Part shown: positions 2,224 through 56,006 of the stretch, piece after piece
How positions within the stretch are numbered: position 1 is the stretch's first letter
Layout of the letters: each line of letters starts with the position of its first letter
Origin: a virus
Lineage: Duplodnaviria > Caudoviricetes
IMG/VR virus record: IMGVR_UViG_3300028907_000003
Coordinates: 21,000-84,999 of that record
Length of the DNA: 64,000 nt
Reading direction: 5' to 3' (one strand)
Notes under the pieces: generated by a model
Told to the model about the DNA's origin: nothing
The model's database searches: none
Seen by the model: the letters and a program-made list of their open reading frames with translations, nothing else
Translations under genes and position numbers: made by a program

Positions 2224-2777
2224 GAAGAATCTTCCTTGATGACTTTAATGATGGTCGTGAGACTGGTATTGAATTGGTTCAGTTGTATGGTGAATATCCT
2301 GGACAAGAAATAGTTACATATGGGATTCATTATAACACTGGTGATACACCAACTGATTATCCATACTGCGTCGTACCAAATGTTGGGATCAACTACTCGT
2401 TTAAAAAGAGTATGTTTATTCGTGTATATAATTGGGATCTTTTCCGTCAGCTAACTGGCGCAAAATCTATATCGGAATTAGGAATCTATCAATATGAATA
2501 TGATCCATATGGACTATTATATTTTGGTAGAAATACATATCCTAGAAGCCAATATGTGCAAGCCAGTGGTACAATAGCTGTATCAGGCGATTGGTGCGGA
2601 GATGGAATGATATTAGCCAATGCATTTACCAAAATGAATCCATATGTAATCGCAAATGGGAAATTCTCAAAAGAATTTGAATCCGATTTATTCATATCAC
2701 AGATAAAGATCTCATCTGACACTCAACAAGGACTGTATAGTTTTCCGCTTCTTCGTGTTACGGCGGTGATTGAGTAA
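2220..2777 (+). CDS. Hypothetical protein coupled to rtcB
   Basis: ATG at 2220 overlaps the upstream stop; its TAA overlaps the rtcB ATG. Confidence 0.7.
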   Translation: MRRIFLDDFNDGRETGIELVQLYGEYPGQEIVTYGIHYNTGDTPTDYPYCVVPNVGINYSFKKSMFIRVYNWDLFRQLTGAKSISELGIYQYEYDPYGLLYFGRNTYPRSQYVQASGTIAVSGDWCGDGMILANAFTKMNPYVIANGKFSKEFESDLFISQIKISSDTQQGLYSFPLLRVTAVIE

Positions 2778-3931
2778 TGGAAATATTAGAAACCCATAGA
2801 TTGCCCATCTATAATTGGGCAACTGACTTGGAACAGGGAGCTAAACAGCAAGCTATTAATTTAGCTTTGCACCCATACACGTATGATCATGTGGCTATTA
2901 TGCCTGACAGTCATCAGGGTTATGGAATGCCAATTGGTGGGGTTATTGCTACTAAGTCGGTGATCATTCCTGAAGCAGTGGGGGTAGACATCGGATGTGG
3001 TATGCAAGCTGTTAAAACTAGCCTCAGTGATATGAACATGACCGCTCTACAGCATGTAGTTGATGATATCAAATCTCGAATACCTGTTGGTTTCTCACAT
3101 AGATCTGAATCATTATGGGCTTATATGCCACCAGGACACGAAAAATTAACAGTTGTTAACAGGGAATTTGACTCGGCGTGTCATCAATTAGGAACATTGG
3201 GTGGCGGGAACCACTTCATCGAAATTCAGCAAGGTGATGATGGTTATATCTGGATGATGGTTCATAGTGGAAGCCGCAATCTAGGCAAGAAGGTAGCCGA
3301 TCACTATATAAAAATGGCTACTCAGCAGACAGCAGATTCCGATGTCAACATTCCTAGAAAGTGGGAATTAGACTACTTATACGTAAATTCACCAGATGGC
3401 CAAGATTACATACGAGAAATGAACTACTGCCTAGAGTTTGCTAAAGCAAATCGCTCATATATGATGAAAGAAATGTGTGAATCCATGAGCGCTGTCATAC
3501 CCACTGTTAGTTATGAGCCTGTAATTGATATACACCACAATTACGCCGAACCGATTAAACTGGATGGTCTTAATCTGGTGTTGCATAGGAAAGGCGCTAC
3601 AGCTGCTAATCGTGGTCAGATGGGTATTATTCCTGGCAGTCAGGGGACCGCCAGCTACATTGTAGAGGGCCGTGGTAATGGTAAGTCGTTTTGCAGCTGC
3701 TCACATGGATCCGGGAGGCGCATGGCTAGAGGAGTCGCCAAGCGAAACTTAAACCTGGATGATGAGCGGTATATACTCGATAGGCAAATGATCATTCATG
3801 ATATGACCAGTACTGAAGCCCTAGATGAAGCTCCAGGCGCTTACAAGAATATCGAATTGGTTATGGAGAATCAAAAGGATCTAGTAAAGCCACTAGTTAG
3901 ATTGACTACAAGAGCGGTGATAAAAGGATGA
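2777..3931 (+). CDS. rtcB: RtcB RNA ligase (3'-phosphate/5'-OH), short bacterial-like form
   Basis: MPDSHQG, VGVDIGCG, GTLGGGNHF, HSGSR, HRKGAT, SCSHGSGR and DEAPGAYK motifs. Confidence 0.95.
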   Translation: MEILETHRLPIYNWATDLEQGAKQQAINLALHPYTYDHVAIMPDSHQGYGMPIGGVIATKSVIIPEAVGVDIGCGMQAVKTSLSDMNMTALQHVVDDIKSRIPVGFSHRSESLWAYMPPGHEKLTVVNREFDSACHQLGTLGGGNHFIEIQQGDDGYIWMMVHSGSRNLGKKVADHYIKMATQQTADSDVNIPRKWELDYLYVNSPDGQDYIREMNYCLEFAKANRSYMMKEMCESMSAVIPTVSYEPVIDIHHNYAEPIKLDGLNLVLHRKGATAANRGQMGIIPGSQGTASYIVEGRGNGKSFCSCSHGSGRRMARGVAKRNLNLDDERYILDRQMIIHDMTSTEALDEAPGAYKNIELVMENQKDLVKPLVRLTTRAVIKG

Positions 3932-3986
3932 GCACTAAACATTTTTGTGATATCTGCAGCAAAGAGCTTTCATTGGTAACATGTGC

Positions 3987-4208
3987 CTACTGAGGGTAAC
4001 AATACCAGTTGGATACCCGGAGCCAATGGATAAGTGTATCGATTTGTGTACAAAATGCTATATGGATATATTTGAAAGGATCCAGAGATGACCGAAAACC
4101 AATTCCGCCGAATAACAATGATATTAGTCCTATTATAAAAGGATCAAAATACTTAGAATCATCATCTCCCGGCTCCAAAATACCATATACCCGAAGCTTC
4201 AATGACAT
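3987..4208 (-). CDS. Small putative membrane protein
   Basis: One hydrophobic segment FIIGLISLLFGGIGF. Confidence 0.4.
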   Translation of the reverse strand: MSLKLRVYGILEPGDDDSKYFDPFIIGLISLLFGGIGFRSSLDPFKYIHIAFCTQIDTLIHWLRVSNWYCYPQ

Positions 4209-29062: not shown

Positions 29063-31450
29063 ATGTCATTCGATCCTGCGGCTTGTTTGGTGTTTGATGA
29101 CCGGACAGGTAGTTTAATTGGTGTTGATGCTGTTAAGGTAAGAGATTGGTTTACCAAGCATTTTAGTGTACTGAGTATTGTACCCACAGGCGACATTTAT
29201 GTGTACAATAATGGAGTTTTTAGATGCGAAGGTGGATCTAAAGAATGGATTACACACAAGCTGTATGAAAATTGGGGCAGATATACACTATATGATGGTA
29301 GCCCGTTGCTGAGTATCAATAGGGTGCGAGAGTTAGTTGCTTTTATACAATTAGCTACGTACCAAGAGATGTTCCTAGATGTTTCCACCAGAAAAACCGT
29401 GTTTGATGCCAATCTTGATATCGTTAATATGGCAAATGGTTTATATAATTGGAGGACAAATGAATTCATGCCTCATACCAGAGAGTATTTATCGAGGATA
29501 CAGGTTCCGGTTAGATATGTGGAGGGTGCTACATGTCCAACAATTGATGCTATAATCGGGGATGTATTAAAACCGCAAGATGTACCAAAGTTCTATGAGT
29601 TTGCTGGATATCTGTTTTACCGTGGAGTGGCCATTGATAAGGCTGTTATGATGCTGTACGGACCCGCTCGTAGCGGGAAGGCGTTGGAAGTTCATACACC
29701 AATACCAACCCCGACAGGGTTCACTGAAATTGGTGATTTGGAAGTCGGGGATGAAGTGTTTGATGAAGAAGGTAACATCGTAAAAGTTATTGGCAAAAGT
29801 CCCGTGTGGAAAAACCGCCAATTATATGATGTTGCTACTAGTGATGGCGAACACATTCTTGCTGATGAGGAACATATTTGGCGAGTATGTTTAAATCCCG
29901 GTGTAAAAAAGGATCGACCTAGCCGACGAGAGTATATAACAGATCATACTACGGAAGATTTATATAATCGACCATCAACACGCAAACCTAGAATATTAGT
30001 GCAAGGTGCTATTAAAACCGGAAATATTGATCTACCAATAGGGCCATATACGTTAGGTGCGTGGTTGGGTGATGGAAATTCTCATAGTGCAATTATCACA
30101 CAACTTGATACCAATGATCGAGAATTTATGGAGAACCGTATAAACGAAGAAGGATATATAACAAGCAAACAAACAACCATTGGTACATTTGGTATACTTG
30201 GTCTTGTAACTCAACTTAGACAGCAAAGCTTATTAAAAAACAAACATATACCAATGATATACTTAAGAGCGAGTTATGATCAACGAATTGCCCTGCTGAA
30301 TGGACTAATAGATACTGATGGTTACGTTGGTGATACTGGGCATGTTGAATTCTGTACGACCAACAAAAACCTAGCAGATGGTGTATATGAACTTGTTAAT
30401 TCACTTGGTGTAAAGGCAACCAAACATATTGGTGATGCGAAGCTTGATGGAAGGTTTATATCTAAAAAATATAGAGTGTGCTTTTACAAATCAGATGCTG
30501 CATCACTTCCAAGAAAAAAGAATAAATGTCGAGACTCTGTTATGAGAGCGAATCGCTACATATCAATTACAAAGGCTGGTATTGGAGATACTATATGTAT
30601 TCAAGTAAGTGCGCCATCTGGAATGTTCTTATGTGGTAAATCGTTCTTGCCGACTCATAATTCAGAATTAGCACGATTAATCATGAACGCAGTTGGAATA
30701 AACAATTGTGCCGCAGTTACGCCACAGGAGCTTGGAAGAGATAAATTTGCAACAGCTGCTTTAGAGGGGAAGCTGGTTAATCTCGTGGGAGATGTGGATG
30801 ATAAGCCAATTGAGAATGAAGGTGTGTTTAAGAAGGTAACGAGCGGTAAGGACTTGCTACAAATCGAGAAGAAATTCCAACAGCCGGTTCAAGTAATAAA
30901 TACTTGTAAAATGGTGTTAATCGCCAATATGTTGCCACCGATCTCGGATTTGACTAAGGGTTTCTTCAGACGGATGGAAATATTTGGGTGTTACCATGTG
31001 TTTGATCCACTGGTAGATGACCCGGAGAGGCTGAAAGCGATAGATGATCCTATGGAGTTATCCGGGTTTGTTATAAAGTGTTTGGGTATGTTGCCGGGAG
31101 TTCTTTCTAGGAAGATGCTGACTAATGAAATGTCTGCTGATGATGTACGGAGTCTTTACATCATGAACGCAAATCCGGTACAGGGATTTATTGATTTGTG
31201 TATAGATGACGATGTTCCCGGTGGTTTCGCCAGTAAGGACATGACGTATAAATATTATGTGGATTTTTGCCGAGCTATAAAAGTTGAAAAACTGTCTAAG
31301 ACCATGTTTGGTAAAGCGTTTAAAAAAGCAATGGGGTGGACCGGAAATGAGCGACAAAGCCAGCGGAAGTTCCATGGTGGAGACAAGTGGGGATGGACTG
31401 AAATTAGGCTCAAGAAACCTGAATTAATGTTGGAAAAGTTGGTGTGTTAG
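29063..31450 (+). CDS. D5/P4-type SF3 replicative helicase (no primase domain) with intein
   Basis: D5_N-like NMANGLYN region; Walker A GPARSGK/S split by the intein; GKLVNLVGD; MVLIANMLP; RRMEIF. Confidence 0.9.
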   Translation: MSFDPAACLVFDDRTGSLIGVDAVKVRDWFTKHFSVLSIVPTGDIYVYNNGVFRCEGGSKEWITHKLYENWGRYTLYDGSPLLSINRVRELVAFIQLATYQEMFLDVSTRKTVFDANLDIVNMANGLYNWRTNEFMPHTREYLSRIQVPVRYVEGATCPTIDAIIGDVLKPQDVPKFYEFAGYLFYRGVAIDKAVMMLYGPARSGKALEVHTPIPTPTGFTEIGDLEVGDEVFDEEGNIVKVIGKSPVWKNRQLYDVATSDGEHILADEEHIWRVCLNPGVKKDRPSRREYITDHTTEDLYNRPSTRKPRILVQGAIKTGNIDLPIGPYTLGAWLGDGNSHSAIITQLDTNDREFMENRINEEGYITSKQTTIGTFGILGLVTQLRQQSLLKNKHIPMIYLRASYDQRIALLNGLIDTDGYVGDTGHVEFCTTNKNLADGVYELVNSLGVKATKHIGDAKLDGRFISKKYRVCFYKSDAASLPRKKNKCRDSVMRANRYISITKAGIGDTICIQVSAPSGMFLCGKSFLPTHNSELARLIMNAVGINNCAAVTPQELGRDKFATAALEGKLVNLVGDVDDKPIENEGVFKKVTSGKDLLQIEKKFQQPVQVINTCKMVLIANMLPPISDLTKGFFRRMEIFGCYHVFDPLVDDPERLKAIDDPMELSGFVIKCLGMLPGVLSRKMLTNEMSADDVRSLYIMNANPVQGFIDLCIDDDVPGGFASKDMTYKYYVDFCRAIKVEKLSKTMFGKAFKKAMGWTGNERQSQRKFHGGDKWGWTEIRLKKPELMLEKLVC
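29681..30661 (+). mobile_element. Class 3 intein (Ala1, WCT signature) with LAGLIDADG endonuclease, 327 aa
   Basis: Starts ALEVHTPIPT; HIW (block B Trp), TICIQV (block F Cys), PTHN (block G Thr); Ser at +1; LGAWLGDG and LNGLIDTDG. Confidence 0.88.
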
Positions 31451-37621: not shown

Positions 37622-38335
37622 ATGGGCAAAAAGGAATTCAATGCTGCCTGGGATGATTATCAAATCGAAATGATTGTTAGTCAAATACCTTCAAGTTTTG
37701 AGGTTGGGTTATTGTCTGATACACATTTTGGAAACAAAAGTCAGCAAATGACAGCCGTTCGAGAATCTTACCGCATTTTTAAAGAAAGGAACGTAGGATT
37801 TGTAATTCATGCTGGAGATTTGGTTGATAAATATTGTTTTAAGCGAGATCGTGGGGAAGCTTGGACAAAATCGGATATTATCGACTATGTGATTGATCAA
37901 TATCCAAGAACTGGATTAACCACGTTTGTTTTGGCGGGTAATCATGATAAAATTCCAAAGCGTAAGCTAAAACAGAATTCTGTGCGAATGGTGACAAATT
38001 ATAGAGATGATTTTTCTTACATTGGGGAAGATCATGGAAGTTTTATCATGAATGGCTTGGAATTCTATGTTAATCATGAAAATGGTATCGGTGAACAAGA
38101 AAGATTGACAAATCTATACCACAAGGCATGTTTCCAAAACTATGATGCAGATATCATCATAGCAGGGCATTTGCATAAGTGGGGTATCAATCCCACATAT
38201 CATCAGTCTTTTATATGCCAATTACCTTCCATGACATCAGAAGGACCAGAATCCGGAGCAGCCATACTCCATGTAAACCCGAAGTTTAAATGGATTGAGC
38301 CGCTTGGATTTGACGTTTTAACTCATGATTGGTAA
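37622..38335 (+). CDS. Calcineurin-like metallophosphoesterase
   Basis: SDTH, GDLVD, GNHD, H, GHLH motifs. Confidence 0.88.
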   Translation: MGKKEFNAAWDDYQIEMIVSQIPSSFEVGLLSDTHFGNKSQQMTAVRESYRIFKERNVGFVIHAGDLVDKYCFKRDRGEAWTKSDIIDYVIDQYPRTGLTTFVLAGNHDKIPKRKLKQNSVRMVTNYRDDFSYIGEDHGSFIMNGLEFYVNHENGIGEQERLTNLYHKACFQNYDADIIIAGHLHKWGINPTYHQSFICQLPSMTSEGPESGAAILHVNPKFKWIEPLGFDVLTHDW

Positions 38336-41726: not shown

Positions 41727-41968
41727 TCGAAATTCCAGTTATTAAATGTGATGGATGTTTCGAAGTAACGCCACTGGATGAAGTTGATGTTATCGAGAAG
41801 CATCCTAATGGTATCGTATTCAAATGCCCTCAATGCGGGTTAACTGATCTATCCTTCGGTGAACCGTTTTATGTACCAATGGGACCGGATCCGGAAGATG
41901 AAGCATTGAACGAGTTAGACAAAACATACGATTATGATATTTGGTTGAGGCATAAATGCAGATCTTAG
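41723..41968 (+). CDS. Zn-ribbon protein
   Basis: CDGC...CPQCG. Confidence 0.7.
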   Translation: MIEIPVIKCDGCFEVTPLDEVDVIEKHPNGIVFKCPQCGLTDLSFGEPFYVPMGPDPEDEALNELDKTYDYDIWLRHKCRS

Positions 41969-44900
41969 ATTGCTATTACAAGTACGATCACAAAGAGAAG
42001 CATCCAACGGTGTTTTTAGTTGGGAAAGATGCTAATGGAAAGCTGAGAACTTTACATACTGAGCACCATTATCCGTACTTCTATGCGGTTGGTGAATTAC
42101 CGCCCAAACTTGCTGATAACCACATGATACATAGCATAGATGCAGTAGATAAGTTCCTTCCGATTGGATATCAAACACAGACCACGCCAATGTGGAAAAT
42201 CACTCTATTTAATCCCGGTGATACCAGTGAAATACGGGATGGGTTAATTGATAGAGGACTAAAGGTGTTTGAAGCTGATATCTTGTATAAGTATCGCTAT
42301 ATGGTAGATCACAATTTAGGGGGAATGATTTGGACCAATGATGGGATACATCGGGTGGAAAACGAGTTAAATGCGCCATTAAAAACGCTGGCATTTGATA
42401 TCGAAGTATTGCTTAATGAGGCTGGCAATTTCCCAATATCCAGCCCCTCGGTTGACACAAAAGGCAATCTCCTCAGAGAAGCGGATCCCATAGTGATCAT
42501 TACAATGGCTATGTCGGATGGTAACATCAAGCTGCTCAAAAACGATGATGAAGCTGAACTTCTACGGGATTTTGTAACCGAAGTTAATAAGTTTGATCCA
42601 GATATTGTTGTTTCATATAACGGTGATAGTTTCGATTGGCCGTACATCATTGATCGAGCGCATCTCAATGAAGTTCCGTTGAGCATCGGGAGAGATAAAT
42701 CTGAGCCAAAGATTCGAGAGGTTGGAGATTCGAGCCAGATTTTAATCCGAGGACGGGTTTCGCTGGATATGCTACCGATAATTCGTAAGAATTATTCGTT
42801 AAAGAATTACAAGTTAGCAACTGCCGCTTCGCTAGTCAATGAGGAAAAGCTCGATGTGAAGCCACAGGAAATGCGCAGATTGTGGTTGGCTCATGATACA
42901 AAATTCCTGGAATATGCTAAACAAGATGCCAATATTACGCTAAAGTTGCTACTGGATCTCAAGTTGTTAGAAAAATACATCGCATTATCAAAAGCTACAG
43001 GATTATTGCTACAAGATGTTTTATATAGCGGCCAATCAGCAATGATTGAGAACTTATTTCTAAAGGAGTTCAATAAGCGAGATCGTGTATTGGGAATCAA
43101 GCCTAGAAGAAGTGCAGCTAAAATAAAGTCGGAACCATTAGATTGTGTTTTCGGGAGCTATATCGAATCATCGGAAGAAGATGATGACGGTGTTAAATAT
43201 GAAGGAGCCACCGTATTAACACCACCAAAGGGTTTAGTAGAAGATGTAGTTGTTCTGGATTATAAATCGCTATACCCAACTATAATTATATCGCATAATC
43301 TCTCGTATGATACTATCCTTCTGGATGATACTCTGGATGTACCATATGAAGAAGCTCCTAAATTCAACCAGGAAGCCACCAGAGGCCCAAGGTTCGTAGA
43401 TAAGACTGTTCTTAAGGGGATTTTACCTAGCATCTTAGAAACTCTCTTAGAGGAGCGATTAGAGGCCAAGAAAGCGATGAAGGCCGCTGCTGACGGATCT
43501 TTGGAGAAAACGCTGTATGATGCCAAACAATACGCTTTTAAAATATTACTTAATTCATGTTATGGGTATTGTGGATATAAACACTCACGCACATTTATAG
43601 TTGATATTGCCGCCAGTGTTACTAGTTATGGTAGACAAAACATTGAAAAAACTCGGCAATTGGTCAAAGAAATGGGATATGAAACTGTATACGGTGATAG
43701 TATCACTGGTGATCGATGTATAACCATTAAAGATCATGATAATATGATTAAAGTTATACCAATTGAAAAACTGTTCCATGGCACTATCCAACATGATGTA
43801 TTCAGTAATAAAGATTATATTACTGAAGTTCCATATATGGCACTCACCCATCTGGGTTGGCGGCCAATTAAATCTATTATGCGACATCATACTGAAAAAC
43901 AGTTATATCGAATTAATCAGAAATTTGGCGAAACTGTCTGTACCGAAGATCATTCATTGATGGATATTAATTTACACGAAATGAAGCCCATGGAGATGCA
44001 TAACACTGAAATGTATAGATGTGACGTACCAGAACCATCAACATATATAGAAATCATTGATTTGTACGAATATGTTAAAGATTTTAAAGTGCGTGTTGTA
44101 TATAAAGGGCGTACTAAGATAAGTAAATTTAATTTATATAATGATGAGTATTTAACCTTTGGGTGGACTGTTCGGAAAAACCCAATATTATTAAAACGGT
44201 ACATTAAAGAAACTGATATAGATCAGTTGTGTATATTACTTGGTGGATATATTACTAACGGAAGTTCGGTTTTTGGTAGTAAAACCGGAGCAAGTATATG
44301 TGATTCTAACATCGATTGGTTAGAAAAAATGCAATTCGCATATAATTCGTTATTTATTGGTGCAAAAACTTGTATCATTGAGTCGAGTAAAAAAGATCGT
44401 GTATTACAAAATGGTACAGTTTATAAAGACAAAACGCGAAAATTGCAAATGATGAATGGCATTAGTGCGGCGTTGTTTACTGCGTTATGTAATCATGGCG
44501 CATATAGTAAAAAACTACCCGATTTTGTGTATAATCTACAACCAACCCATCGTGAAATATTGTTATCCACTATTATAGAGGGTGATGGATCAAGAACCAG
44601 TTGTACCAGATATACTGAGTCATATCGAAAAATAGAATTTACGTATAGTACGGTGTCTACTGAGTTGGCATCAGGTTTATCTACATTAATGAATATAATG
44701 CGTATAAATCACAGCATTCGATTTAGACAAGCCAAACATGAATATAAATTAGTTACTTCTAGTGTCTTTAATAGCAAGATAATAACTAAATTGTCGAAAG
44801 AGCCATCAAACACTTATGTGTATGATATAGAAGTAGATGATGCTCACGCATTTGTTGACTCGTGTGGAAATATATTATTACACAATACGGATTCTTTATT

Positions 44901-45645
44901 CGTTAAAACAAATATCGCAGATTTTGATCAATCTATGCAGATTGCCGATAAACTTGCAAAAGCCGCGACAGCACAGCTTCCACCACCAATGGAGCTAGTA
45001 CCGGAAGCGTACTGTAAGCGAGTTCTGTTTCTCGCGAAAAAACATTATTCTAAATATCAATTTGAGAAAAGGGGTATTGGAAAAATTAAAAGTAAAGGAT
45101 TAGAAACTGTTAGGCGTGATTGGTGTGAGTATACATCTGAAACATTGACCGCTATACTAAATACTGTAATGCTCGAAGGTGATGTTGATAAGGCTCTTGA
45201 AATTGCTCGCGAAGCAATAACTAAGATTAAGACATCTGATTTAACGGATCCGGGTATATACTGGAAGCTGGTTTTGTCAAAAAAATATGGAAGTGAATAC
45301 AAACCAGGTGCGGAAACAAGATTGGCTCACCTTATTCTGATAGACAAAATGAAAAAACGGAATCTCATGGATTACCAAGTTAATGATAGAGTGCAATTCG
45401 TGGTTGTTAAAGGATCTTCTGATTTAACTAAGGATGATCATCGCGGTAAATTCAGAGATCAAGCTGAGGATCCTGAGTATGCTTTGGAGCATGGAATTGA
45501 ACTAGATCGAAAGTATTATATAGAAAAACAGCTAGTAAAACCTATTCACCGAATGCTAGGTGTGCTCGGTGTTACAGAAGCGATGCTCTTAAATACTAGT
45601 ATCGCTAAAGAGAGTAGTATGCAAAAGACGCTGTTCGATTGGTGA
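41956..45645 (+). CDS. polB: Family B DNA polymerase with intein
   Basis: Exo AFDIE, YNGDSFD, YAKQDA; DYKSLYP, KILLNSCYG, YGD/TDS, KKHY, KGLE; C-terminal PIP box QKTLFDW. Confidence 0.96.
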   Translation: MQILDCYYKYDHKEKHPTVFLVGKDANGKLRTLHTEHHYPYFYAVGELPPKLADNHMIHSIDAVDKFLPIGYQTQTTPMWKITLFNPGDTSEIRDGLIDRGLKVFEADILYKYRYMVDHNLGGMIWTNDGIHRVENELNAPLKTLAFDIEVLLNEAGNFPISSPSVDTKGNLLREADPIVIITMAMSDGNIKLLKNDDEAELLRDFVTEVNKFDPDIVVSYNGDSFDWPYIIDRAHLNEVPLSIGRDKSEPKIREVGDSSQILIRGRVSLDMLPIIRKNYSLKNYKLATAASLVNEEKLDVKPQEMRRLWLAHDTKFLEYAKQDANITLKLLLDLKLLEKYIALSKATGLLLQDVLYSGQSAMIENLFLKEFNKRDRVLGIKPRRSAAKIKSEPLDCVFGSYIESSEEDDDGVKYEGATVLTPPKGLVEDVVVLDYKSLYPTIIISHNLSYDTILLDDTLDVPYEEAPKFNQEATRGPRFVDKTVLKGILPSILETLLEERLEAKKAMKAAADGSLEKTLYDAKQYAFKILLNSCYGYCGYKHSRTFIVDIAASVTSYGRQNIEKTRQLVKEMGYETVYGDSITGDRCITIKDHDNMIKVIPIEKLFHGTIQHDVFSNKDYITEVPYMALTHLGWRPIKSIMRHHTEKQLYRINQKFGETVCTEDHSLMDINLHEMKPMEMHNTEMYRCDVPEPSTYIEIIDLYEYVKDFKVRVVYKGRTKISKFNLYNDEYLTFGWTVRKNPILLKRYIKETDIDQLCILLGGYITNGSSVFGSKTGASICDSNIDWLEKMQFAYNSLFIGAKTCIIESSKKDRVLQNGTVYKDKTRKLQMMNGISAALFTALCNHGAYSKKLPDFVYNLQPTHREILLSTIIEGDGSRTSCTRYTESYRKIEFTYSTVSTELASGLSTLMNIMRINHSIRFRQAKHEYKLVTSSVFNSKIITKLSKEPSNTYVYDIEVDDAHAFVDSCGNILLHNTDSLFVKTNIADFDQSMQIADKLAKAATAQLPPPMELVPEAYCKRVLFLAKKHYSKYQFEKRGIGKIKSKGLETVRRDWCEYTSETLTAILNTVMLEGDVDKALEIAREAITKIKTSDLTDPGIYWKLVLSKKYGSEYKPGAETRLAHLILIDKMKKRNLMDYQVNDRVQFVVVKGSSDLTKDDHRGKFRDQAEDPEYALEHGIELDRKYYIEKQLVKPIHRMLGVLGVTEAMLLNTSIAKESSMQKTLFDW
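43699..44886 (+). mobile_element. Intein at the YGD/TDS (Pol-c) site, 396 aa
   Basis: Starts SITGD, ends LLHN, Thr at +1; LAGLIDADG-like LGGYITNG and IIEGDG; AT-rich. Confidence 0.92.
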
Positions 45646-45837: not shown

Positions 45838-46800
45838 ATGAGAACATTAGATGATGTGGGGTTCTATACAATGACCGAGAAGCGGGTTGCTACGTCAACC
45901 TGCTATACTCCGGTGTATAGAGCGGAATTTATAATTACTGATTTGTGCAATTTTAAGTGTCCGTATTGTAGAGGAATCGACTGTGGGGGATATTTAAAAT
46001 ATCGGGACTTTGCAGAGCAGCTTGGTTATGTCGGGGTTGGTACTCGTGGCTTGAAGAATATTAGATTCTCAGGCGGGGAACCTACACTGCATCCGGACTT
46101 GGGAAGATTTGTTGAATTGGCTAAAAAGCATCACTGTGAGCATATAGCTATTTCAACTAATGGGTCAGCCCCTAGAGAAGCATACGATGCACTATTAGAA
46201 GCCGGTGTAAATGATTTCTCTATCAGTTTGGATGCATGTTGCTCCAGTTTCGGAGAGAAAATGTGTGGTGGGATCCCTGGAGCGTGGGAAAGAGTCATCG
46301 ACAATATCAAGTATCTGTCAAAGAAAACATATGTTACTCTAGGAATGGTATTTGATGACAGTACTATTGAAACCATGCCAGAAACCGTTCAATTCGGACA
46401 TGATCTTGGAGTGGCAGATATCAGAGTGATATCTTCGGCGCAGTCCGATCTTACATTGAGTGGATTAAAGTCAATTGATTGGAATCTCCTGAAAGATCAC
46501 CCGATTCTGAAATATCGAGTAATGAATACCGTAGAGGGCAGACATGTACGCGGGTTAACCAAGATGGACAGCGATAAATGCCCGCTTGTTATGGATGATG
46601 TGATGATATGCAATGGTAATCATTATGCGTGTCCAATTCATATGCGTGAGCATGGAGAACCCATTGGAAAAGTCGGTCCTGGTATGTGGAATGAACGGGA
46701 AATGTGGTGGTTAAAACACAATACGCAAAAGGATCCAATATGTAAGCATAACTGTATTGAATGCTGTGTGGACTTCAATAACCGTTGGGAGTTGTATTAA
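45838..46800 (+). CDS. Radical SAM enzyme with Cys-rich C-terminus
   Basis: CNFKCPYC, SGGEP, ISTNG, SISLD; C-terminal C..C..C..CIECC. Confidence 0.9.
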   Translation: MRTLDDVGFYTMTEKRVATSTCYTPVYRAEFIITDLCNFKCPYCRGIDCGGYLKYRDFAEQLGYVGVGTRGLKNIRFSGGEPTLHPDLGRFVELAKKHHCEHIAISTNGSAPREAYDALLEAGVNDFSISLDACCSSFGEKMCGGIPGAWERVIDNIKYLSKKTYVTLGMVFDDSTIETMPETVQFGHDLGVADIRVISSAQSDLTLSGLKSIDWNLLKDHPILKYRVMNTVEGRHVRGLTKMDSDKCPLVMDDVMICNGNHYACPIHMREHGEPIGKVGPGMWNEREMWWLKHNTQKDPICKHNCIECCVDFNNRWELY

Positions 46801-46928
46801 GTGTCAAGATGTGGTAGATTAGAACCCTTTAAAGAAGATATAATATCTTCTTATTTATCTGGTAATAGTTCATGTGTAATCTGTAAATTATATAATGTAA
46901 CCCCAAACATGAATTGGGCAGGGATTAA

Positions 46929-47348
46929 ATGAAATCTGTAATCGACTTGGCGCAGAGAATCGAGCGGTTATACGTTGATAAAGCATTCGGGATATTAACC
47001 CGCAATGCTTTAGAGATTGAAGTTGAAGAGCAGTTAATTCCACCATTTGATGTAGCAATAGTCGATTTCAAGGATGTTAAATTACTCAATTCCGCAATTG
47101 GATATGATCGAGTAAATGCATTATTTAAATCGATGTTTGAGACATTCTCATACCCGGAACCAGTGCTAATAGGTCGGTGGTTTAGCGGTGATGAAATTGC
47201 ACTTGTATGCAAAACCGATCTTGATCGTGTTATAACCGAATTTATAAAACATGCTAAAAAATATGCTCTTTCGTTTCGGGGGATCATGTTTTATAATCAG
47301 AGCAGTTTAAATGAACTTAAACTAGATGGAATAGGTGATATCAGATGA
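46929..47348 (+). CDS. Stand-alone GGDEF-like nucleotidyl cyclase domain
   Basis: DKAFGILTRNA, VAIVDFKDVKLLNSAIGYDRVNALF and GRWFSGDEIAL align with GGDEF core motifs. Confidence 0.7.
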   Translation: MKSVIDLAQRIERLYVDKAFGILTRNALEIEVEEQLIPPFDVAIVDFKDVKLLNSAIGYDRVNALFKSMFETFSYPEPVLIGRWFSGDEIALVCKTDLDRVITEFIKHAKKYALSFRGIMFYNQSSLNELKLDGIGDIR

Positions 47349-47662
47349 AGGTAACTATTGAAGTAGATGGTGGAGCAGGACCATTACAAGAGATTGAAGC
47401 CGAGAACGTACAGTGGTCTTATGGTAGCGATGGATCAGTAATTGGAACCCTAACACTGAAAACGGCTGAATTGTCTCAAGGGAAAGATATACTTTGGGAT
47501 ATATTGTCCATTGTGCCATTTACTATGTATACTCAGATCGGCAATAGTGTTGAAATGGTAGAAGATGTTAAGGTCATTTCGAAAGGAATCGATGCAAAAG
47601 AAAACGTGCTGATGTATTACTTTACAAGGGAGAGTGAACCAGATGAGCAAGACGGAGAATAA
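47345..47662 (+). CDS. Hypothetical beta-rich protein
   Basis: ATGA-coupled to the GGDEF-like gene. Confidence 0.6.
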   Translation: MKVTIEVDGGAGPLQEIEAENVQWSYGSDGSVIGTLTLKTAELSQGKDILWDILSIVPFTMYTQIGNSVEMVEDVKVISKGIDAKENVLMYYFTRESEPDEQDGE

Positions 47663-47807
47663 GGCTGAAGTTGATTTATCGATCATGCAGTATGGAAAGT
47701 ACAAGGGTAAGAGTATAAAAGAAGTTCCCGATGATTATTTAGAATGGATAATCCAAAAGAAAACTGATGAGGTTGAGTTTTTGCAGCGGGAGCTTGATAG
47801 CAGATGA
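47643..47807 (+). CDS. DUF3820-like small protein (54 aa)
   Basis: MQYGKYKGKSIKEVPDDYLEW. Confidence 0.7.
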   Translation: MSKTENKAEVDLSIMQYGKYKGKSIKEVPDDYLEWIIQKKTDEVEFLQRELDSR

Positions 47808-48552: not shown

Positions 48553-49173
48553 ATGGAGATTAAGACTAGCACGATACCGAAAGCCTGGATTAAAATTATA
48601 GAAACAGTTTTATCAAAAGGTGAACATATAGAAAATAAAATAGAAATGCAAGAAACAATTTCCACGATTATAACGGATCCTGGTAGAGATATGCTTCATA
48701 AGAGATTTACTTTTAATAAAAGTCAAATGGAACTTTATAGTGCTCAAGTTTTATCCGGGGAAAATCCAACTGGACACCCATACACATACGGTGGGCGTTT
48801 TCGCATCTATGGAAGTTCCGCAGTAGATCAATTATCTAGCATGATTCAAAGATTGAATCAGGATCCCGATAGCAGACGGGCAACGGCAGTTCTTTGGGTT
48901 CCAGAAATAGATACAGTTTCATCAGAAGTACCGTGTTGGACAGCAGCAAATGCCACTATTCGAAAAGGATATCTAAATTTCAGAGCGCTTTTTAGAAGCC
49001 ATGATATGTTCGGTGGATTTCCTGCTAATTGTTTCATGTTGTTTAAAATGCAAGAATATATAGCTAATGCCACCCAATCAAAACCTGGATTATTACAAGT
49101 GGTTTCATGGAATCCTCATATTTATCTAGCTGATTATCCAACAGCATCTGAAGTTATTGGAGGAATTGCATAA
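48553..49173 (+). CDS. thyA: Thymidylate synthase family, short archaeal type
   Basis: YTYGGR, SRRA, catalytic VPC, FRSHD...PAN (Asn indicates dUMP specificity), HIY. Confidence 0.85.
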   Translation: MEIKTSTIPKAWIKIIETVLSKGEHIENKIEMQETISTIITDPGRDMLHKRFTFNKSQMELYSAQVLSGENPTGHPYTYGGRFRIYGSSAVDQLSSMIQRLNQDPDSRRATAVLWVPEIDTVSSEVPCWTAANATIRKGYLNFRALFRSHDMFGGFPANCFMLFKMQEYIANATQSKPGLLQVVSWNPHIYLADYPTASEVIGGIA

Positions 49174-49707: not shown

Positions 49708-50700
49708 ATGTTAAAACTAAAAGATGTAGTGTATGAAATTACGCCAAGATGCAATAAGGGATGTATTGAATGTGGTTCAGCTGCAATTACTGGACTACCC
49801 CATCCAGATGTAGCACACATTGGAAAAATAGTGGATTCTATCTTAGCATATCCACCGGAAACTATCACTATAACAGGTGGAGAGCCAGGATCTTTGCCCA
49901 GTGGTGTATTAAATGCTGTAGTTCATGATCTAGCGCAAAAATGCAAAGTAAACATCGTTACAAATGGTGCTCTATTTGATCAAGAGGTAAGCCCGGATTT
50001 TAACGTAATCGGAGTTTCTATCAATAGAGTGGAAGATTCTGAAGAATTTAATCATGGGCAAGCTTTTGGTCGATCTCAGTTTTTTTCTGATAAACTTGTA
50101 ATGATTACAAATTTCGGGACACATAACGTATGGTGCTTTGATCAGCTGGCTGAGATTGCAGCTAAATTCCCAATGTGGCAGATTCAGCTTACCATGGGCG
50201 AATATATGTTACCAGCGACAGGTATTGAATATCTAATGAGTAAGATAAACGATCTTAAAATCAATTACGTACTTGCTGATAATTTGCAGCCTGAAGGCAG
50301 ATGCCTAGCTGGTATCAATATGTGTGGTATTACATATAATGGAAATGTTATTCCATGCTTATCAGAGAGGGCATGCTGTGATGGAACTGTTACCGTATAT
50401 GGTAATTTGTTCTCGGAATCACTAAAATCGATATGGGAAACTAAGTTTACTGATATTCGATTTGTTGATGAGGGTTGGTGCAGAAAGTGTAAAAGTTTCA
50501 TTGATTACCCACCGAAGAAAAAACTATCCGCTAGAGAAAAACTCGGCATGATATTACCCGAAGGACCAATTCGTGATTGGAGTCCAATGGAAATACAGTT
50601 GTACGGTGTAGCTGATACACAGATATATGCTTATGCTGTTTTTGATTCGAGGGATTATTCACATTCTACATATGGTACACAAACAATAATTACAAACTGA
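49708..50700 (+). CDS. Radical SAM/SPASM enzyme with YG-containing tail
   Basis: YEITPRCNKGCIECGS, TGGEP, VTNG, CLAG...GI...G.V.PCLS, GNL, CRKC. Confidence 0.88.
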   Translation: MLKLKDVVYEITPRCNKGCIECGSAAITGLPHPDVAHIGKIVDSILAYPPETITITGGEPGSLPSGVLNAVVHDLAQKCKVNIVTNGALFDQEVSPDFNVIGVSINRVEDSEEFNHGQAFGRSQFFSDKLVMITNFGTHNVWCFDQLAEIAAKFPMWQIQLTMGEYMLPATGIEYLMSKINDLKINYVLADNLQPEGRCLAGINMCGITYNGNVIPCLSERACCDGTVTVYGNLFSESLKSIWETKFTDIRFVDEGWCRKCKSFIDYPPKKKLSAREKLGMILPEGPIRDWSPMEIQLYGVADTQIYAYAVFDSRDYSHSTYGTQTIITN

Positions 50701-50703
50701 GGA

Positions 50704-53700
50704 GTGCTACGAATGCAAAAGAAAGTTTTAACAAGTGACGGTTACGTGTCTACGTTTGACAAGCAGAAGATCATCGATGAGATCCGCAAGAACTGTAAAT
50801 CGATGGGTGTTGAAGTCACCGAGAAACAGTTAACCAAGATTGCTACTAACACAGAAGAAAGTATTAAAGAAATGAAACCCAAACATCTTACCGGGAGTCT
50901 TATTCGTAGTGTATCTCTGATTGAGATGCTGGATCTAGGATTAGAAGATGTTTATAAGGCGTGTGCTAAAGTTGGTATGCCGATTGCTGATATGATGGCG
51001 ATATGGCAAGTAGATGGCGATAGTGTTCATGATAACGCCAATTTAGATGGCACTAATCAGGAGACTCAACACAAAAGAATCGCTGATCATATTTGTAAAG
51101 AAGCCGTACTACAAATGCTTCCTAGCGATATATCGAAACTCCATGTTGAAGGGAATCTACACTGTTTGTCTGGTGACATGCCAATTGTGTATAAAATACA
51201 AGATAAGATATACATATCTACCATCAAGGAATTAGTGGAAACTAGATATGAATCAGCTGTTAGTGTTCCGTCTATTGATACGCGCACGAAAAAGATATCG
51301 TGGAAACCTGTTACTCGATTTATAAAAAATCCATCTACCGATTTATACAAAGTCACGTTTGGTAAAGGTCGATATATCATTTGTACATCGGATCATCCAT
51401 TTTACAAAACATCGGGGCAACATATCCAACATTACACTCAACCACTTAGTGATTTACGAGTTGGTCATAGAATCGCCACATTAAATCATATACCAATTGA
51501 TGATGTACAAGATGAAACCTATCGTGGTAATTTAATTGGGTTTTTCTTGGGAGATGGTACATTACAGCATGGTTGTATATGTTTTCATTTGAAAAAAACC
51601 GAAAAAATCACATATCTTATAAATGTATTAAACCATTTAGATAAATCATATGATATGACAAATAACATAGATGGGACAACTACAATTTCATTTAAAGATG
51701 ACGAATTATGTGAAATTTGGAATAATTCAAAAAATATATCAAACTTCAACGAAGTTGATGCTACTGGCATTCTGTCAGGTTTAATTAATTCAGATGCATC
51801 CATCGTATTACATGGGATTAACAAGTTACCATATCTCGAATTCGGTAATACTAACGAAGATATCATTAATTTATATCATTGTTTAATGCTGATGCATGGT
51901 ATAAACGTAAGCTATCAACGATATGACAAAAAATCCGATACGCATAAAGATTTTTATCATTGTGTGTGTTCTGGTGAAGATGTTACCAACTTATTATGTA
52001 AACTAAGGTTACGTAAGCCGTTTGCGGATCGAGTTGCTCAACAATTCACGCATGGGACTAGAAAAACGCATACTTGGTCACAAATACCAATTAAATCTAT
52101 TGAATATTATGGTAATGAGGACACATATGATATTACAGTAGATGAAAATCATAATTTCTTGGCCGGTCATGGATTTATTCTATCAGGCAATTGTCATGAT
52201 ATGGAATACTTTACAAATCGCCAGTTTTGCTACAACAGTGACCTCCGTTTCATTTTATATTATGGACTACTCCCAGATGGATGTGGCAAAACATTACCAG
52301 TTGCAAGAGCAGCACAAACCGCAGAAGTTGCACTTCTACACGCTGCTAAATCACTTGGTTCAAGTCAATGTAATTGCGCTGGAGGTCAGGGGTACAATTC
52401 GTTTAATGTACTAATTTCTCCATATTTAGCTGGTAAGACCTACGCTGAAATAAAACAATTGGCGCAGATGTTTATATACGAAATGGGTCAAATGACATGC
52501 GCTCGTGGAGGACAAAGCCTGAGTTATGATACCCCAATCGTGATAAAGCGGGGTGATGACATCGATATTATATCAATCGGGGATTTCGTTGGTAAATATT
52601 TAAATCAGCCTGGATCATCCACTGTTGATGATATAATATTAACACCATCATTGAACCGGATAACTAATCAAGTAGAATGGAAACCCATAACGCATGTATA
52701 TAAGCATGTGCCAAAATCGAAATTAGTGGCAACATCTCTTCATGATGGTCGATCTGTTACGACAACGGAAGATCATTCATTATTTGATATTAATCAATTC
52801 GGTGATATATATGAAATTTCACCAAGTGATAATCCACACACAATCATCACGGTTAAACAGATTCCAATAACAGGATCAACTATCATTAATCACGATTTGG
52901 CTTTTTTAATTGGTTGTTGTATCGGTGATGGATCTCTTGCTGCTAATAATGGTATACCCGATACTTCTATGCGACTATGTATACACAATCGCGCTGTTAT
53001 GAATCGAATATCTGATATAGTATATAATCTGAATGGATCTGCTGGCGAGTGGCATGAAGATACTCAAAAAAAATGTTCAAGTATGTCGTTTTCTACGATT
53101 GGAATTCCATTAATTACTGAAATTGGTAAAGGAGCATCAAATAAAAGAATACCAGCTGCATTATTGTCATGTGATAATGATACACTTCTATCATTATTAG
53201 ATGGTTTGTTGTCAACTGATGGTAATATAAATCGTAGACGATACCAATATAGCACAACATCAAAAATTCTAATTAATCAAATTGAATACATATTACGTAG
53301 GATTGATTTAGATTACCATATAGATAAACGATTTACAAAAAGTAACTTTGTTAGAAATCACCCAGTATATCGCGTTACGTTAAGTACGATTAGTTCGCTT
53401 GGTATAAAAATTACAAATGATGAACGAACTATCGTAAATACTAATATAATTTCCCAACAACGACATGACTTTAGTATCATGAAATCCGAAATAACTTCTC
53501 GCGTACCCGGATTAAGTAAGTATAGCTACACTTGGCGAGCATCTTCACGAAGGCTAAAGTATCATCAATTAGAACAAGTATCACATTTAATACCGGATAC
53601 ATGGAACAAAATATGCAATATATTACCAATGGAAGTAAAGTCTATAAAAATAACTGAACCAGAAGAATTTGTATTCGACATAGGTGTACAAGACAATGAA

Positions 53701-55365
53701 AATTTTGTGCTCGCTAATGGTATTGTAGCGCATAATTCCGTTTTCAGTTCCATTCAATTGTACCCAGGCGTACCTCAAGTATGGTGGAACCGACCTGTTG
53801 TCTACAAGGGTCAAGTGTGGGATGGTAAACCAAGAACACCTAAGGGTAAAAAACAAACTACCTGTAAATGGAGTTTTGGAGGGAAAACTGGTGATGGTAG
53901 ATTATTCTTTAATCGCAGTGAAACAACTAAAGAAACCATACTAGAACCTGAAACAATTTCACGAAAAACATATGGACAATATGATCGGGAAGCTCGGCTT
54001 TTGTTTAAAGCATTCATGGAAATTTATACCGAAGGTGATATTCGTGGTAGGCCGTTCACATTCCCAAAGGCAGAAATCGTATTCTCTAAGGAGTTCATGG
54101 ATTCTCCTGATTTTGATAAACCTATTATCCGAAGGCTTACTGAATGGTCTGCTCCGAGTTACAAAGAACAATATCAATCTGCGATTAAATTAGCATTAAC
54201 TAATGGAACACCATATTTTGAATCGCAGTATCACGAAGAAAATCCATTAACTTCTATCAATTGTACCCAATGTTGCGCGTACAGCTTTGCATTAAGTGAA
54301 GAAGAAACTGTAGGATTCAACAACATGATGGATTTCGTAGATGGAGCGCATTTCGATTCACTTGGATCTATGCAAGTTGTGTCACTGAATTTACCAAGAG
54401 CCGCTTATGTAGCACTTGAAAGTGAAGAAGAAGATAAATTCATGACTGCTCTAAAGTACCTCAGAGAGCAAATCGATAATGCGGTGAGAGTATTTAAGAT
54501 TAAACGTGAATATTTATCTAAACAAGCATCACCATTTATAAGGCAACAGGTAGTGGATCCAAATGACCCAACTAAAAAATCCCCGGTATTCTGTGACTTG
54601 AGTAAACTGACATATGTAATCGGGATGGTTGGTCTAAATGAGTTTGTTCAAGCTCTAACTGGAATGCAGCTGCATGAATCTGAAGATGCTGTTGTCATGG
54701 GTGAGCGACTCATTGGATCACTTAACCTGTACTGTGGTAAGGTCGGGCATGAAAACGGAATGAGCATTGCATTGGCTCGAACTCCAGCTGAGACTACAGC
54801 CCAACGATTCGCCGTACAGGATTTAATCAAGTATCCAAAATATGCTAAAAAATATGTAAAAGGCAACCTAAAAGAAGCTATTAAAATGCTTCCTACTAGG
54901 AGAGATGTACCGATCCAGTACAGCAACGGTACACACTTGGCGGTAGATGCTCCGGTGACGCTAGATAAAAAGATCGAGATTGAAGGTCGATTCTTTGGTG
55001 TTCTCAAAGGCGGTAATATCTTCCATGTGTTCCTCGATGATGTAGTTCCGATGCTTAGAGCAAGCGAACTAGGAACCGGTGAGATACATCCGTCATACGT
55101 TGATGATGCTATGGAATTCGTGTTTAAGATCTTCCGTGAAACGCCGATCAACTATCTGGCGATAACCAAGGACTCGACGATATGTGATGATTGTAATTCG
55201 ATCACGCCCGGAGTAAATGAAAAATGTCCCAAATGCGGCTCAACAAATGTTGACTTTTTCAGTCGCATAACTGGATATTTGGAACCGATCAGTCAATGGA
55301 ATGCTGCAAAAAAACAAGAATTCTTTGATCGACATAGATATGGTGAAAAAGATGTCAGAGGATGA
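50704..55365 (+). CDS. nrdD: Anaerobic (class III) ribonucleotide reductase with ATP cone and two inteins
   Basis: ATP cone; H/CHDMEY; QCCAY; LNLPR; YSNGTH; Zn site CDDC..CPKC; glycyl loop SRITGYL. Confidence 0.96.
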   Translation: MLRMQKKVLTSDGYVSTFDKQKIIDEIRKNCKSMGVEVTEKQLTKIATNTEESIKEMKPKHLTGSLIRSVSLIEMLDLGLEDVYKACAKVGMPIADMMAIWQVDGDSVHDNANLDGTNQETQHKRIADHICKEAVLQMLPSDISKLHVEGNLHCLSGDMPIVYKIQDKIYISTIKELVETRYESAVSVPSIDTRTKKISWKPVTRFIKNPSTDLYKVTFGKGRYIICTSDHPFYKTSGQHIQHYTQPLSDLRVGHRIATLNHIPIDDVQDETYRGNLIGFFLGDGTLQHGCICFHLKKTEKITYLINVLNHLDKSYDMTNNIDGTTTISFKDDELCEIWNNSKNISNFNEVDATGILSGLINSDASIVLHGINKLPYLEFGNTNEDIINLYHCLMLMHGINVSYQRYDKKSDTHKDFYHCVCSGEDVTNLLCKLRLRKPFADRVAQQFTHGTRKTHTWSQIPIKSIEYYGNEDTYDITVDENHNFLAGHGFILSGNCHDMEYFTNRQFCYNSDLRFILYYGLLPDGCGKTLPVARAAQTAEVALLHAAKSLGSSQCNCAGGQGYNSFNVLISPYLAGKTYAEIKQLAQMFIYEMGQMTCARGGQSLSYDTPIVIKRGDDIDIISIGDFVGKYLNQPGSSTVDDIILTPSLNRITNQVEWKPITHVYKHVPKSKLVATSLHDGRSVTTTEDHSLFDINQFGDIYEISPSDNPHTIITVKQIPITGSTIINHDLAFLIGCCIGDGSLAANNGIPDTSMRLCIHNRAVMNRISDIVYNLNGSAGEWHEDTQKKCSSMSFSTIGIPLITEIGKGASNKRIPAALLSCDNDTLLSLLDGLLSTDGNINRRRYQYSTTSKILINQIEYILRRIDLDYHIDKRFTKSNFVRNHPVYRVTLSTISSLGIKITNDERTIVNTNIISQQRHDFSIMKSEITSRVPGLSKYSYTWRASSRRLKYHQLEQVSHLIPDTWNKICNILPMEVKSIKITEPEEFVFDIGVQDNENFVLANGIVAHNSVFSSIQLYPGVPQVWWNRPVVYKGQVWDGKPRTPKGKKQTTCKWSFGGKTGDGRLFFNRSETTKETILEPETISRKTYGQYDREARLLFKAFMEIYTEGDIRGRPFTFPKAEIVFSKEFMDSPDFDKPIIRRLTEWSAPSYKEQYQSAIKLALTNGTPYFESQYHEENPLTSINCTQCCAYSFALSEEETVGFNNMMDFVDGAHFDSLGSMQVVSLNLPRAAYVALESEEEDKFMTALKYLREQIDNAVRVFKIKREYLSKQASPFIRQQVVDPNDPTKKSPVFCDLSKLTYVIGMVGLNEFVQALTGMQLHESEDAVVMGERLIGSLNLYCGKVGHENGMSIALARTPAETTAQRFAVQDLIKYPKYAKKYVKGNLKEAIKMLPTRRDVPIQYSNGTHLAVDAPVTLDKKIEIEGRFFGVLKGGNIFHVFLDDVVPMLRASELGTGEIHPSYVDDAMEFVFKIFRETPINYLAITKDSTICDDCNSITPGVNEKCPKCGSTNVDFFSRITGYLEPISQWNAAKKQEFFDRHRYGEKDVRG
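51163..52191 (+). mobile_element. NrdD intein 1 (343 aa), penultimate Gly
   Basis: Starts CLSGD, ends ILSGN, Cys at +1; IGFFLGDG and SGLINSDA. Confidence 0.9.
52516..53736 (+). mobile_element. NrdD intein 2 (407 aa), Ser1
   Basis: RGGQ/SLSYDT...VAHN/SVFSS; IGCCIGDG and DGLLSTDG. Confidence 0.92.
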
Positions 55366-55477
55366 ACCGGTTCCCTTTTGGGAACCACTTAAAGCAACCA
55401 GAGAATGGATATTGGCTAAAACCAAAGGGTATAAAGATGGAAATGTGAAATCCGATTGGAGTGTTAAAAATGAGTGA
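55352..55477 (+). CDS. 41-aa peptide bridging nrdD and the next gene
   Basis: MSEDEPVPFWEPLK...; GGTGA RBS; overlaps both neighbours. Confidence 0.5.
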   Translation: MSEDEPVPFWEPLKATREWILAKTKGYKDGNVKSDWSVKNE

Positions 55478-56006
55478 TATTGTAAGAACTGTGTTAAAAC
55501 AGCGTGATGTACCAGCTGATACTTTCACTGATGTAGTGCCGATTGATATAGAACAAGGTATATATAGAAAATATGATATATATCAACTCGCGGCGGTATA
55601 TGAAGGAAATAGTAAAACTTCTGCAAAAGTTGCGGAAAACAAGATCTTTGGTGCTGAAGATTTTTACTTCATTAATGGAGATACAAACTTTGGTATAACC
55701 GGATTGAAGCAAACTGATAACATTAGATATGATCTACTTAATGCGATCAAAGAGTTTAAACCCGCTTATATCGTAACATCATCCAAGTATTTAAATATTC
55801 CTGGAATTACGATACTTAAATCGCCGTATGTAAATCGATATGAGCATTTCCTGCTACCAGAACGTGTTGGTGAATTTGTAGTTGCTGACCCACTGAAGGA
55901 TGAACTACTCAGCGATGGTAAACACTATATGCATGAGTGGGTAGCCATAGAATTGCACGACTTACATAAAGTAGCGTGGGTAAAGCCGCGAGCGAAACAT
56001 ATATAA
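55470..56006 (+). CDS. Truncated encapsulin/HK97-fold-like protein
   Basis: AEDFYFINGDTNFGITGL and C-terminal FVVAD...YMHEWVAIEL..KVAWV resemble the family 1 encapsulin P-domain. Confidence 0.6.
   Translation: MSDIVRTVLKQRDVPADTFTDVVPIDIEQGIYRKYDIYQLAAVYEGNSKTSAKVAENKIFGAEDFYFINGDTNFGITGLKQTDNIRYDLLNAIKEFKPAYIVTSSKYLNIPGITILKSPYVNRYEHFLLPERVGEFVVADPLKDELLSDGKHYMHEWVAIELHDLHKVAWVKPRAKHI

Follow-up and report, generated by a model that had tools for sequence, protein, structure and literature searches.

The gene at positions 46929-47348 (+ strand) of the window, that is, the whole 64,000-nt stretch of viral DNA analyzed here, encodes a 139-amino-acid palm-domain protein (hereafter mini-GGDEF), which homology, AlphaFold2 (AF2) fold and family conservation place among GGDEF domains as a member of the RWFSGDEI type (class A, see below). 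In bacteria, GGDEF enzymes are the classic synthases of second messengers. Our preferred reading, to which we give a probability of about 0.55, is that mini-GGDEF would be a minimal, catalytically competent GGDEF-palm enzyme, accessory to the radical SAM enzyme encoded just upstream. As judged from sequence comparison, what is new here is the breadth of the family, the non-conservation of the K442/R446 motif and the genetic coupling to a radical SAM enzyme.

An in-frame TAA codon (46926-46928) lies directly 5' of the mini-GGDEF ATG, and an N-terminal sensor extension or a longer form of the protein is therefore impossible; the first-pass annotation of this DNA was right in describing a protein with no sensor domain. 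The radical SAM gene (45838-46800, + strand) is the immediate upstream neighbor. Between the two, a 43-codon ORF or variable spacer (46801-46932, + strand) is probably not a gene, with no family match and no homologue at related loci. Strain-variant contigs skip a segment of 128 nt (46796-46923) that has a 5-nt ATTAA repeat at its borders, so that the radical SAM stop codon abuts the mini-GGDEF start codon (TAAATG), and in a further variant, from DNA, GGGG replaces 46821-46920 (100 nt). Since these variants lack the segment, the 43-codon ORF is dispensable. Fifteen studies, of activated sludge, anaerobic digesters and wastewater, contain near-identical sequences. Both genes are covered by contigs from three libraries labelled metatranscriptomes, one contig spanning the pair, but transcription is not demonstrable from them because DNA may be present in such libraries.

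Downstream, the ATG of a 105-aa ORF (47345-47662, + strand) overlaps the mini-GGDEF stop codon (ATGA); this ORF has no Pfam, PHROGs or NCBIfam match and no counterpart at related loci. A 57-aa ORF a little further (47634-47807) matches QSregVF_b (2.3e-6) and an ExoX-like C-terminal domain. The mini-GGDEF gene sits in a viral block for replication and nucleotide metabolism, comprising, besides the upstream radical SAM gene, genes for PolB with an intein (41956-45645), a ThyA-like protein (48553-49173), a second radical SAM enzyme with a SPASM domain (49708-50700) and NrdD with inteins (50704-55365). The SPASM radical SAM gene is directly upstream of the NrdD gene and its product is far larger than the usual NrdG activase; no NrdG-type gene was identified. 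Intein/LAGLIDADG signatures are present in four genes of the virus: those for a D5-type primase-helicase (29063-31450), PolB and NrdD, the last of which seems to hold two inteins, and a 666-aa ORF, probably the large terminase (L002:8546-10546).

By itself, mini-GGDEF gave nothing useful in searches of Pfam (GGDEF included), PHROGs, NCBIfam and PADLOC, and phmmer found no match to it in the PDB. A word-indexed search returned 21 homologues of 109-211 aa, most of about 130-140 aa, across which GILTR, D46, N54, G58-Y59 and WFSGDEI are invariant. PF00990 matched 17 of these 21 proteins (best 3e-7), no family besides GGDEF recurred among them, and the family profile matched solved diguanylate cyclases with an E-value of 1e-6 (DgcR, 6zxm). 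The AF2 model of mini-GGDEF (pLDDT 86.3) was submitted to Foldseek, as the first-pass annotation had proposed, and the best matches were exclusively GGDEF domains (E about 1e-6, probability 1.00). An exhaustive structural scan with VIA-align placed GGDEF domains in all of the 33 best chains (Z 8.5-13.1); lower in the ranking came GTP cyclohydrolase III (Z 8.3) and, at Z about 7, class III cyclases and reverse transcriptases. The 50 best rows contain neither Cas10 nor mCpol, an absence that does not exclude either. An ESM Atlas feature search was in agreement with the GGDEF assignment. The protein has the palm fold, with the signature carried by the beta2-beta3 hairpin, and its sequence and profile match to GGDEF comes through the family and not through the single protein. 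With Foldseek, VIA-align and family-profile matches all to GGDEF domains, the GGDEF/palm fold suggested from the DNA letters holds, and the assignment, made on a predicted model, is as secure as computation permits.

Residues were compared in a register obtained from the HMMER alignment of the family to DgcR, with the residue roles of PleD taken from PMC7288161. In this register, D46 (47064-47066) is the equivalent of the metal ligand D327, K51 of K332, N54 (47088-47090) of the base-contacting N335 and Y59 of H340, while N63 (47115-47117) occupies the position of D344, the guanine-reading Asp. The signature hairpin RWFSGDEI (residues 83-90; 47175-47198) aligns as R83-W84-F85-S86-G87-D88-E89-I90 with R366-(one extra residue)-F-G-G-E-E-F, and so has one residue more than RxGGDEF. 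The GILTR motif (residues 21-25; 46989-47003; all these motifs on the + strand) is the counterpart of canonical DxLTGLxNR. The PleD register proposed at first sight (D327, K332 and N335 kept, RWF-SGDEI as signature, D344 replaced by Asn) was therefore correct by the DgcR alignment.

Conservation was counted over the 163 top family representatives. D46, N54, G87, D88 and E89 are invariant (163/163), R25 (160), G58 (161), Y59 (155), R83 (158) and S86 (155) are nearly so, and G21 and T24 are each found in 142. The position of K51 is occupied by His in 94 representatives, Lys in 32, Gly in 13, Ser in 12 and Arg in 10; as it is mostly His, the Lys of the window protein is no family feature. At the D344 position, 131 representatives have Asn and 32 Asp. 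The Asn to which the first-pass annotation had drawn attention is thus present, but it is a trait of the family and not peculiar to this virus.

When compared with active diguanylate cyclases, mini-GGDEF retains the equivalents of the metal ligands D327 and E370/E371 (D46, D88 and E89, all 163/163). The pair N335 and D344 is kept only as N54, with Asn63 at the second position, the signature is SGDEI in place of GG(D/E)EF, and K442/R446 and RxxD are missing. The RxxD I-site is absent five residues upstream of the signature, where the window reads YPEPVLIGRWFSGDEI, and none is conserved in the family. In an alignment with full-length GGDEF domains, the alpha3-beta4 hairpin was missing from the mini-GGDEF family; the family also stops within the last helix and has no conserved basic pair of the AKxxGRN type, which corresponds to the K442/R446 phosphate clamp. 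Since this motif is not conserved, the protein may bind triphosphate weakly or depend on a partner for it. That the metal ligands are invariant speaks for an active enzyme; the altered base pocket and the loss of the phosphate clamp speak against simple c-di-GMP synthesis.

Exhaustive searching with the family profile retrieved 2,817 representative clusters at E≤1e-3, 324 of which reached E≤1e-10, with lengths mostly of 120-190 aa, indicating that mini-GGDEF is part of a large uncharacterized family. This family is widespread in bacteria and bacterial viruses, mostly in the latter, and mini-GGDEF is therefore no archaeal-virus oddity. A tblastn search of mini-GGDEF against 50,697 GenBank phage records gave no match, and full-text literature searches yielded no description of the family or of its pairing with a radical SAM enzyme. 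Distant relatives (~30% identity) in bacterial metagenome-assembled genomes and temperate phages occur without the radical SAM gene in three contexts: with GHMP sugar kinase and sugar-phosphate nucleotidyltransferase genes, adjoining or fused with a full GGDEF-RHH protein, and in lysogeny regions. The bacterial relatives at L014-L018, L019-L022 and P0158 show two contexts: an operon that also encodes the GHMP sugar kinase, the sugar-phosphate nucleotidyltransferase and an ABC-2 transporter, or a position adjoining or fused to a full GGDEF domain with a C-terminal ribbon-helix-helix. Another protein, P0058 (449 aa), carries a mini-GGDEF at its N-terminus and a group 1 glycosyltransferase domain.

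The upstream gene encodes a 320-aa MoaA/viperin-like radical SAM enzyme (Pfam Radical_SAM, 1.3e-23). Its top NCBIfam match is moaA (TIGR02666, 1.8e-19), with 69.9 bits against an equivalog cut-off of 284, and it scores 39.1 bits against viperin (NF038283, cut-off 180); the PADLOC pVip model matches residues 31-141 only (7.8e-13). By profile score the protein is most similar to MoaA and next to viperin, both far under the curated cut-offs. The structures nearest to its AF2 model (pLDDT 88.7) are BlsE, SkfB, DesII, MoaA and viperin. The substrates of MoaA (GTP 3',8-cyclase) and viperin are nucleoside triphosphates; taken together, MoaA, viperin, BlsE and DesII act on nucleotides or nucleoside/nucleotide sugars. 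The viral enzyme shares with MoaA and viperin the core with CxxxCxxC, and these two are its best profile matches and among its nearest structures. It differs from them by scores below the equivalog cut-offs and by a distinct C-terminal cysteine pattern, the invariant cysteines being C37/C41/C44 together with C135, C248, C265, C302, C306 and C310. It also forms a viral family of its own, with 190 relatives in IMG/VR; tblastn against the 50,697 GenBank phage records gave only three matches, all in uncultured huge phages.

Several observations link the two genes, a pair that recurs in unrelated viral genomes. Radical SAM orthologues of 44-62% identity lie directly upstream of a mini-GGDEF in four other loci (L006, L008, L009 and L011), and the genes otherwise surrounding the pair differ between these loci and the window. 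We surveyed 90 radical SAM loci, made up of the best 80 of the 190 IMG/VR relatives plus others. A small GGDEF was found at 23 of them, mostly within 500 nt, and was missing from the neighborhood of the remaining 67 (67/90), so that the GGDEF is accessory and not obligate for the radical SAM enzyme and may have a regulatory role. At least three proteins are natural fusions of the two, and both orders occur: the radical SAM part precedes mini-GGDEF in P0262 (451 aa) and P0200 (422 aa), and a single open frame of the 735-kb uncultured huge phage LR756501 has mini-GGDEF ahead of the radical SAM part. The small GGDEFs beside the radical SAM gene fall into two classes, the window protein representing class A. 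Class B proteins, of about 130 aa, keep the canonical DxLTGLLNR, DIN..xIN, GHxFGD, RYAGDEF and ADxxMxxxK motifs, and class B therefore looks like a minimal orthodox GTP-binding cyclase. That one radical SAM family has two different GGDEF lineages as neighbors, and that fusions occur, makes a functional link much likelier than inherited synteny. Judged by these gene arrangements, mini-GGDEF does not truly function on its own, and the upstream radical SAM enzyme is its conserved partner. A complex prediction for the two proteins scored 0.01, which counts neither for nor against binding.

Other small partners are found at related loci. A protein of ~90 aa, c106, adjoins the radical SAM gene at 27 of the 90 loci, in the same slot as the small GGDEF, and in forms of 412-436 aa it is fused to the radical SAM C-terminus (e.g., the C-terminus of P0216); it is not encoded in the window. 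Its consensus includes AiG.C......CRPK and W.HL..EF (examples, L009:4385-4663 and L026:5735-6004), and no Pfam family or informative Atlas neighbor was found for it. A helical domain of 140 aa, likewise not in the window, is fused N-terminally to class A proteins in forms of 277-300 aa. This domain (KLALHG...YYD...PRY...CIHAEHNSG; P0022, P0024, L027:6971-7843, L066:1944-2438) is at one locus a separate gene between those for the radical SAM enzyme and the GGDEF, and was ruled out as a second GGDEF by an hhalign probability of 0.2%. Further genes were noted around these loci. In L006, a related 88-kb viral contig, a glycosyltransferase gene is located just upstream of the radical SAM gene, and a Thg1-family palm-domain enzyme (L006:5013-5756) is encoded in the vicinity of an RNA ligase. 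In L026 and L028 the radical SAM gene has an RtcB gene close by, and the window carries one at 2777-3931; RNA-repair genes are thus recurrent in these viruses. On L028, a 98-kb contig, a Tad8-family gene (anti-Thoeris type; 3821-4045) is found 2 kb upstream of the radical SAM homologue.

The virus, tailed and with a record of 85 kb, encodes a Mu-like portal and a baseplate J protein. Of the 50,697 phage records, only Caudoviricetes assigned to Methanosarcinales (E=4e-32) and Methanomicrobiales match the portal, and ThyA is of the methanogen type (TIGR03283, 1.4e-45), with Methanobacterium virus PhiF1 as best match. These homologies and a fitting habitat support a methanogen host, and with it the initial description of the virus as archaeal. 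Neither of the two methanogen control genomes, Methanosarcina and Methanocaldococcus, contains PF00990. The idea that HD and metallophosphoesterase genes of the virus could erase a nucleotide product fared less well. PF01966 finds no HD domain in the whole 85-kb record, and the candidate ORF at 55461-56006 contains a loose HD pattern only, without a Pfam match. The only metallophosphoesterase gene of the record (37622-38335) is 9 kb from mini-GGDEF, and no linkage was seen in the immediate neighborhoods examined; in L006, a Metallophos gene is located about 9 kb downstream.

We compared mini-GGDEF with known systems. With the diguanylate cyclases PleD, WspR and DgcR (PF00990) it shares the fold (Z up to 13.1), profile homology, the equivalents of D327, E370/E371 and N335, a motif derived from DxLTGLxNR and the N-terminal stalk helix. 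It differs in being ~30 residues shorter, in its RWFSGDEI signature, in having Asn for D344 and Tyr for H340, in the lack of an I-site, of conserved K442/R446 and of a sensor, and in its viral origin and its pairing with a radical SAM enzyme. Hypr GGDEFs, the 3'3'-cGAMP synthases of the Geobacter GacA type, also carry a substitution at the base-reading D344 position (PMC7288161). However, the residue in mini-GGDEF is Asn and not Ser, and the remainder of the domain is truncated and much more divergent; it was accordingly not classified as a Hypr GGDEF, which is defined by Ser at D344 in a canonical domain. For a minimal palm cyclase, the functionally closest precedent is mCpol/OptS, whose minimal palm domain actively makes cyclic dinucleotides without accessory domains (PMC12657218). 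Mini-GGDEF and the minimal CRISPR polymerase mCpol (OptS of Panoptes) have in common a minimal stand-alone palm domain of similar size. In contrast, no sequence-family match to mCpol was found and, among the 50 best rows of the structural scan, the closest chains are GGDEF domains, with no Cas10 in that list; moreover, OptS is a host defense gene with a membrane effector, whereas mini-GGDEF is a viral gene with a radical SAM partner.

If mini-GGDEF is indeed a competent enzyme acting with the radical SAM protein, it would bind a purine nucleoside triphosphate, and a hydroxyl would attack the alpha-phosphate, following GGDEF chemistry. The substrate or the acceptor may be a guanine-type nucleotide, already altered, or to be altered later, by the MoaA/viperin-like enzyme. 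The pair would therefore make not c-di-GMP but a non-canonical dinucleotide (linear or cyclic) or a nucleotide conjugate; the virus would probably use it in replication, for host takeover or against nucleotide-based immunity. In favor of this reading are the GGDEF fold and homology, the invariant catalytic residues, the adjacency and fusions with the radical SAM gene, the canonical motifs of class B, the nucleotide-type substrates of the radical SAM relatives, the abutting genes of the strain variants, the RNA-library contig across both genes, DNA carry-over notwithstanding, and the mCpol/OptS precedent. Several observations count against this preferred reading: the SGDEI signature with its extra residue, the failure of the single protein to match Pfam and the loss of K442/R446 on the sequence side, and, on the genomic side, the 67 of 90 radical SAM loci without a small GGDEF and the distant members in other contexts. 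A more far-reaching proposal, which we hold only tentatively and regard as rather unlikely in full, is that the two- or three-gene module (radical SAM enzyme, small GGDEF and sometimes the 90-aa partner) makes a novel radical-SAM-modified (cyclic) dinucleotide serving as a messenger, an antimetabolite or an immune decoy, with the class A Asn pocket adapted to the modified base, in uncultured tailed viruses of both bacteria and methanogens.

Some of the same observations bear on a different role, that of a non-catalytic nucleotide-binding or regulatory subunit, in which a degenerate GGDEF would act as a sensor or scaffold tuning the radical SAM enzyme. Such degenerate domains are established as receptors (PMC7288161), and the non-canonical signature, the lost K442/R446 motif, the occurrence of the radical SAM gene mostly without a small GGDEF (67/90 loci) and the interchangeable partners that fill the same slot (c106, the helical N-domain) would all fit. 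We nevertheless consider this role rather unlikely, given that both metal-ligand positions and the N335 equivalent are retained in 163/163 representatives, a pattern predicted by catalysis and not by mere binding, and that the class B active site is fully canonical. An independent viral cyclase, with no need for the radical SAM enzyme, could, in line with the first-pass annotation, produce a decoy messenger, or drain or sponge nucleotides, against CBASS or type III CRISPR. The mCpol precedent of minimal palm enzymes able to make decoy cyclic dinucleotides speaks for this idea, as do the Tad8-family gene near the radical SAM homologue in L028 and the change of D344 to Asn, which is compatible with altered specificity. 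The fusions and the tight adjacency argue instead for joint action with the radical SAM enzyme, mini-GGDEF has no PADLOC match, and the eraser genes are absent or unlinked, making an independent cyclase improbable.

The link to carbohydrate genes raises yet another reading, in which mini-GGDEF would be a nucleotidyltransferase acting on a non-nucleotide acceptor (a sugar phosphate, a protein or a DNA base), in glycan or DNA hypermodification. It draws on the glycosyltransferase fusion in P0058, the glycosyltransferase upstream of the radical SAM gene in L006, the GHMP sugar kinase and sugar-phosphate nucleotidyltransferase adjoining the bacterial relatives, the action of BlsE and DesII, the best structural matches of the radical SAM enzyme, on nucleoside/nucleotide sugars, and the position of the window gene among PolB, ThyA and NrdD. 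We know of no precedent for such acceptor chemistry in GGDEF domains, and the glycosyltransferase link is seen at few loci, with none beside the pair in the window; we regard this reading as very improbable. The lowest likelihood of all, by a little, is given to an ordinary diguanylate cyclase making c-di-GMP to alter host behavior. The GGDEF fold and the intact metal ligands agree with it, and SGDEF and AGDEF variants have been reported to be active in some bacteria. Against it stand Asn for D344, Tyr for H340, the extra signature residue, the missing K442/R446 and I-site, and a methanogenic host lineage in which both control genomes lack PF00990.

Nucleotide-derived signals and antimetabolites are central to present research on phage-host conflict. 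The settings in which this fold is found are widened by a pared-down, catalytically conserved GGDEF in viruses, among them a virus of methanogens, a host lineage without GGDEF signaling. The radical SAM family counts 190 relatives in IMG/VR and none in cultured phages, and the module has therefore escaped study so far. The recurrent pairing and fusion of the radical SAM enzyme with mini-GGDEF amounts to a concrete hypothesis, namely that these viruses may possess a pathway to a modified nucleotide or dinucleotide.
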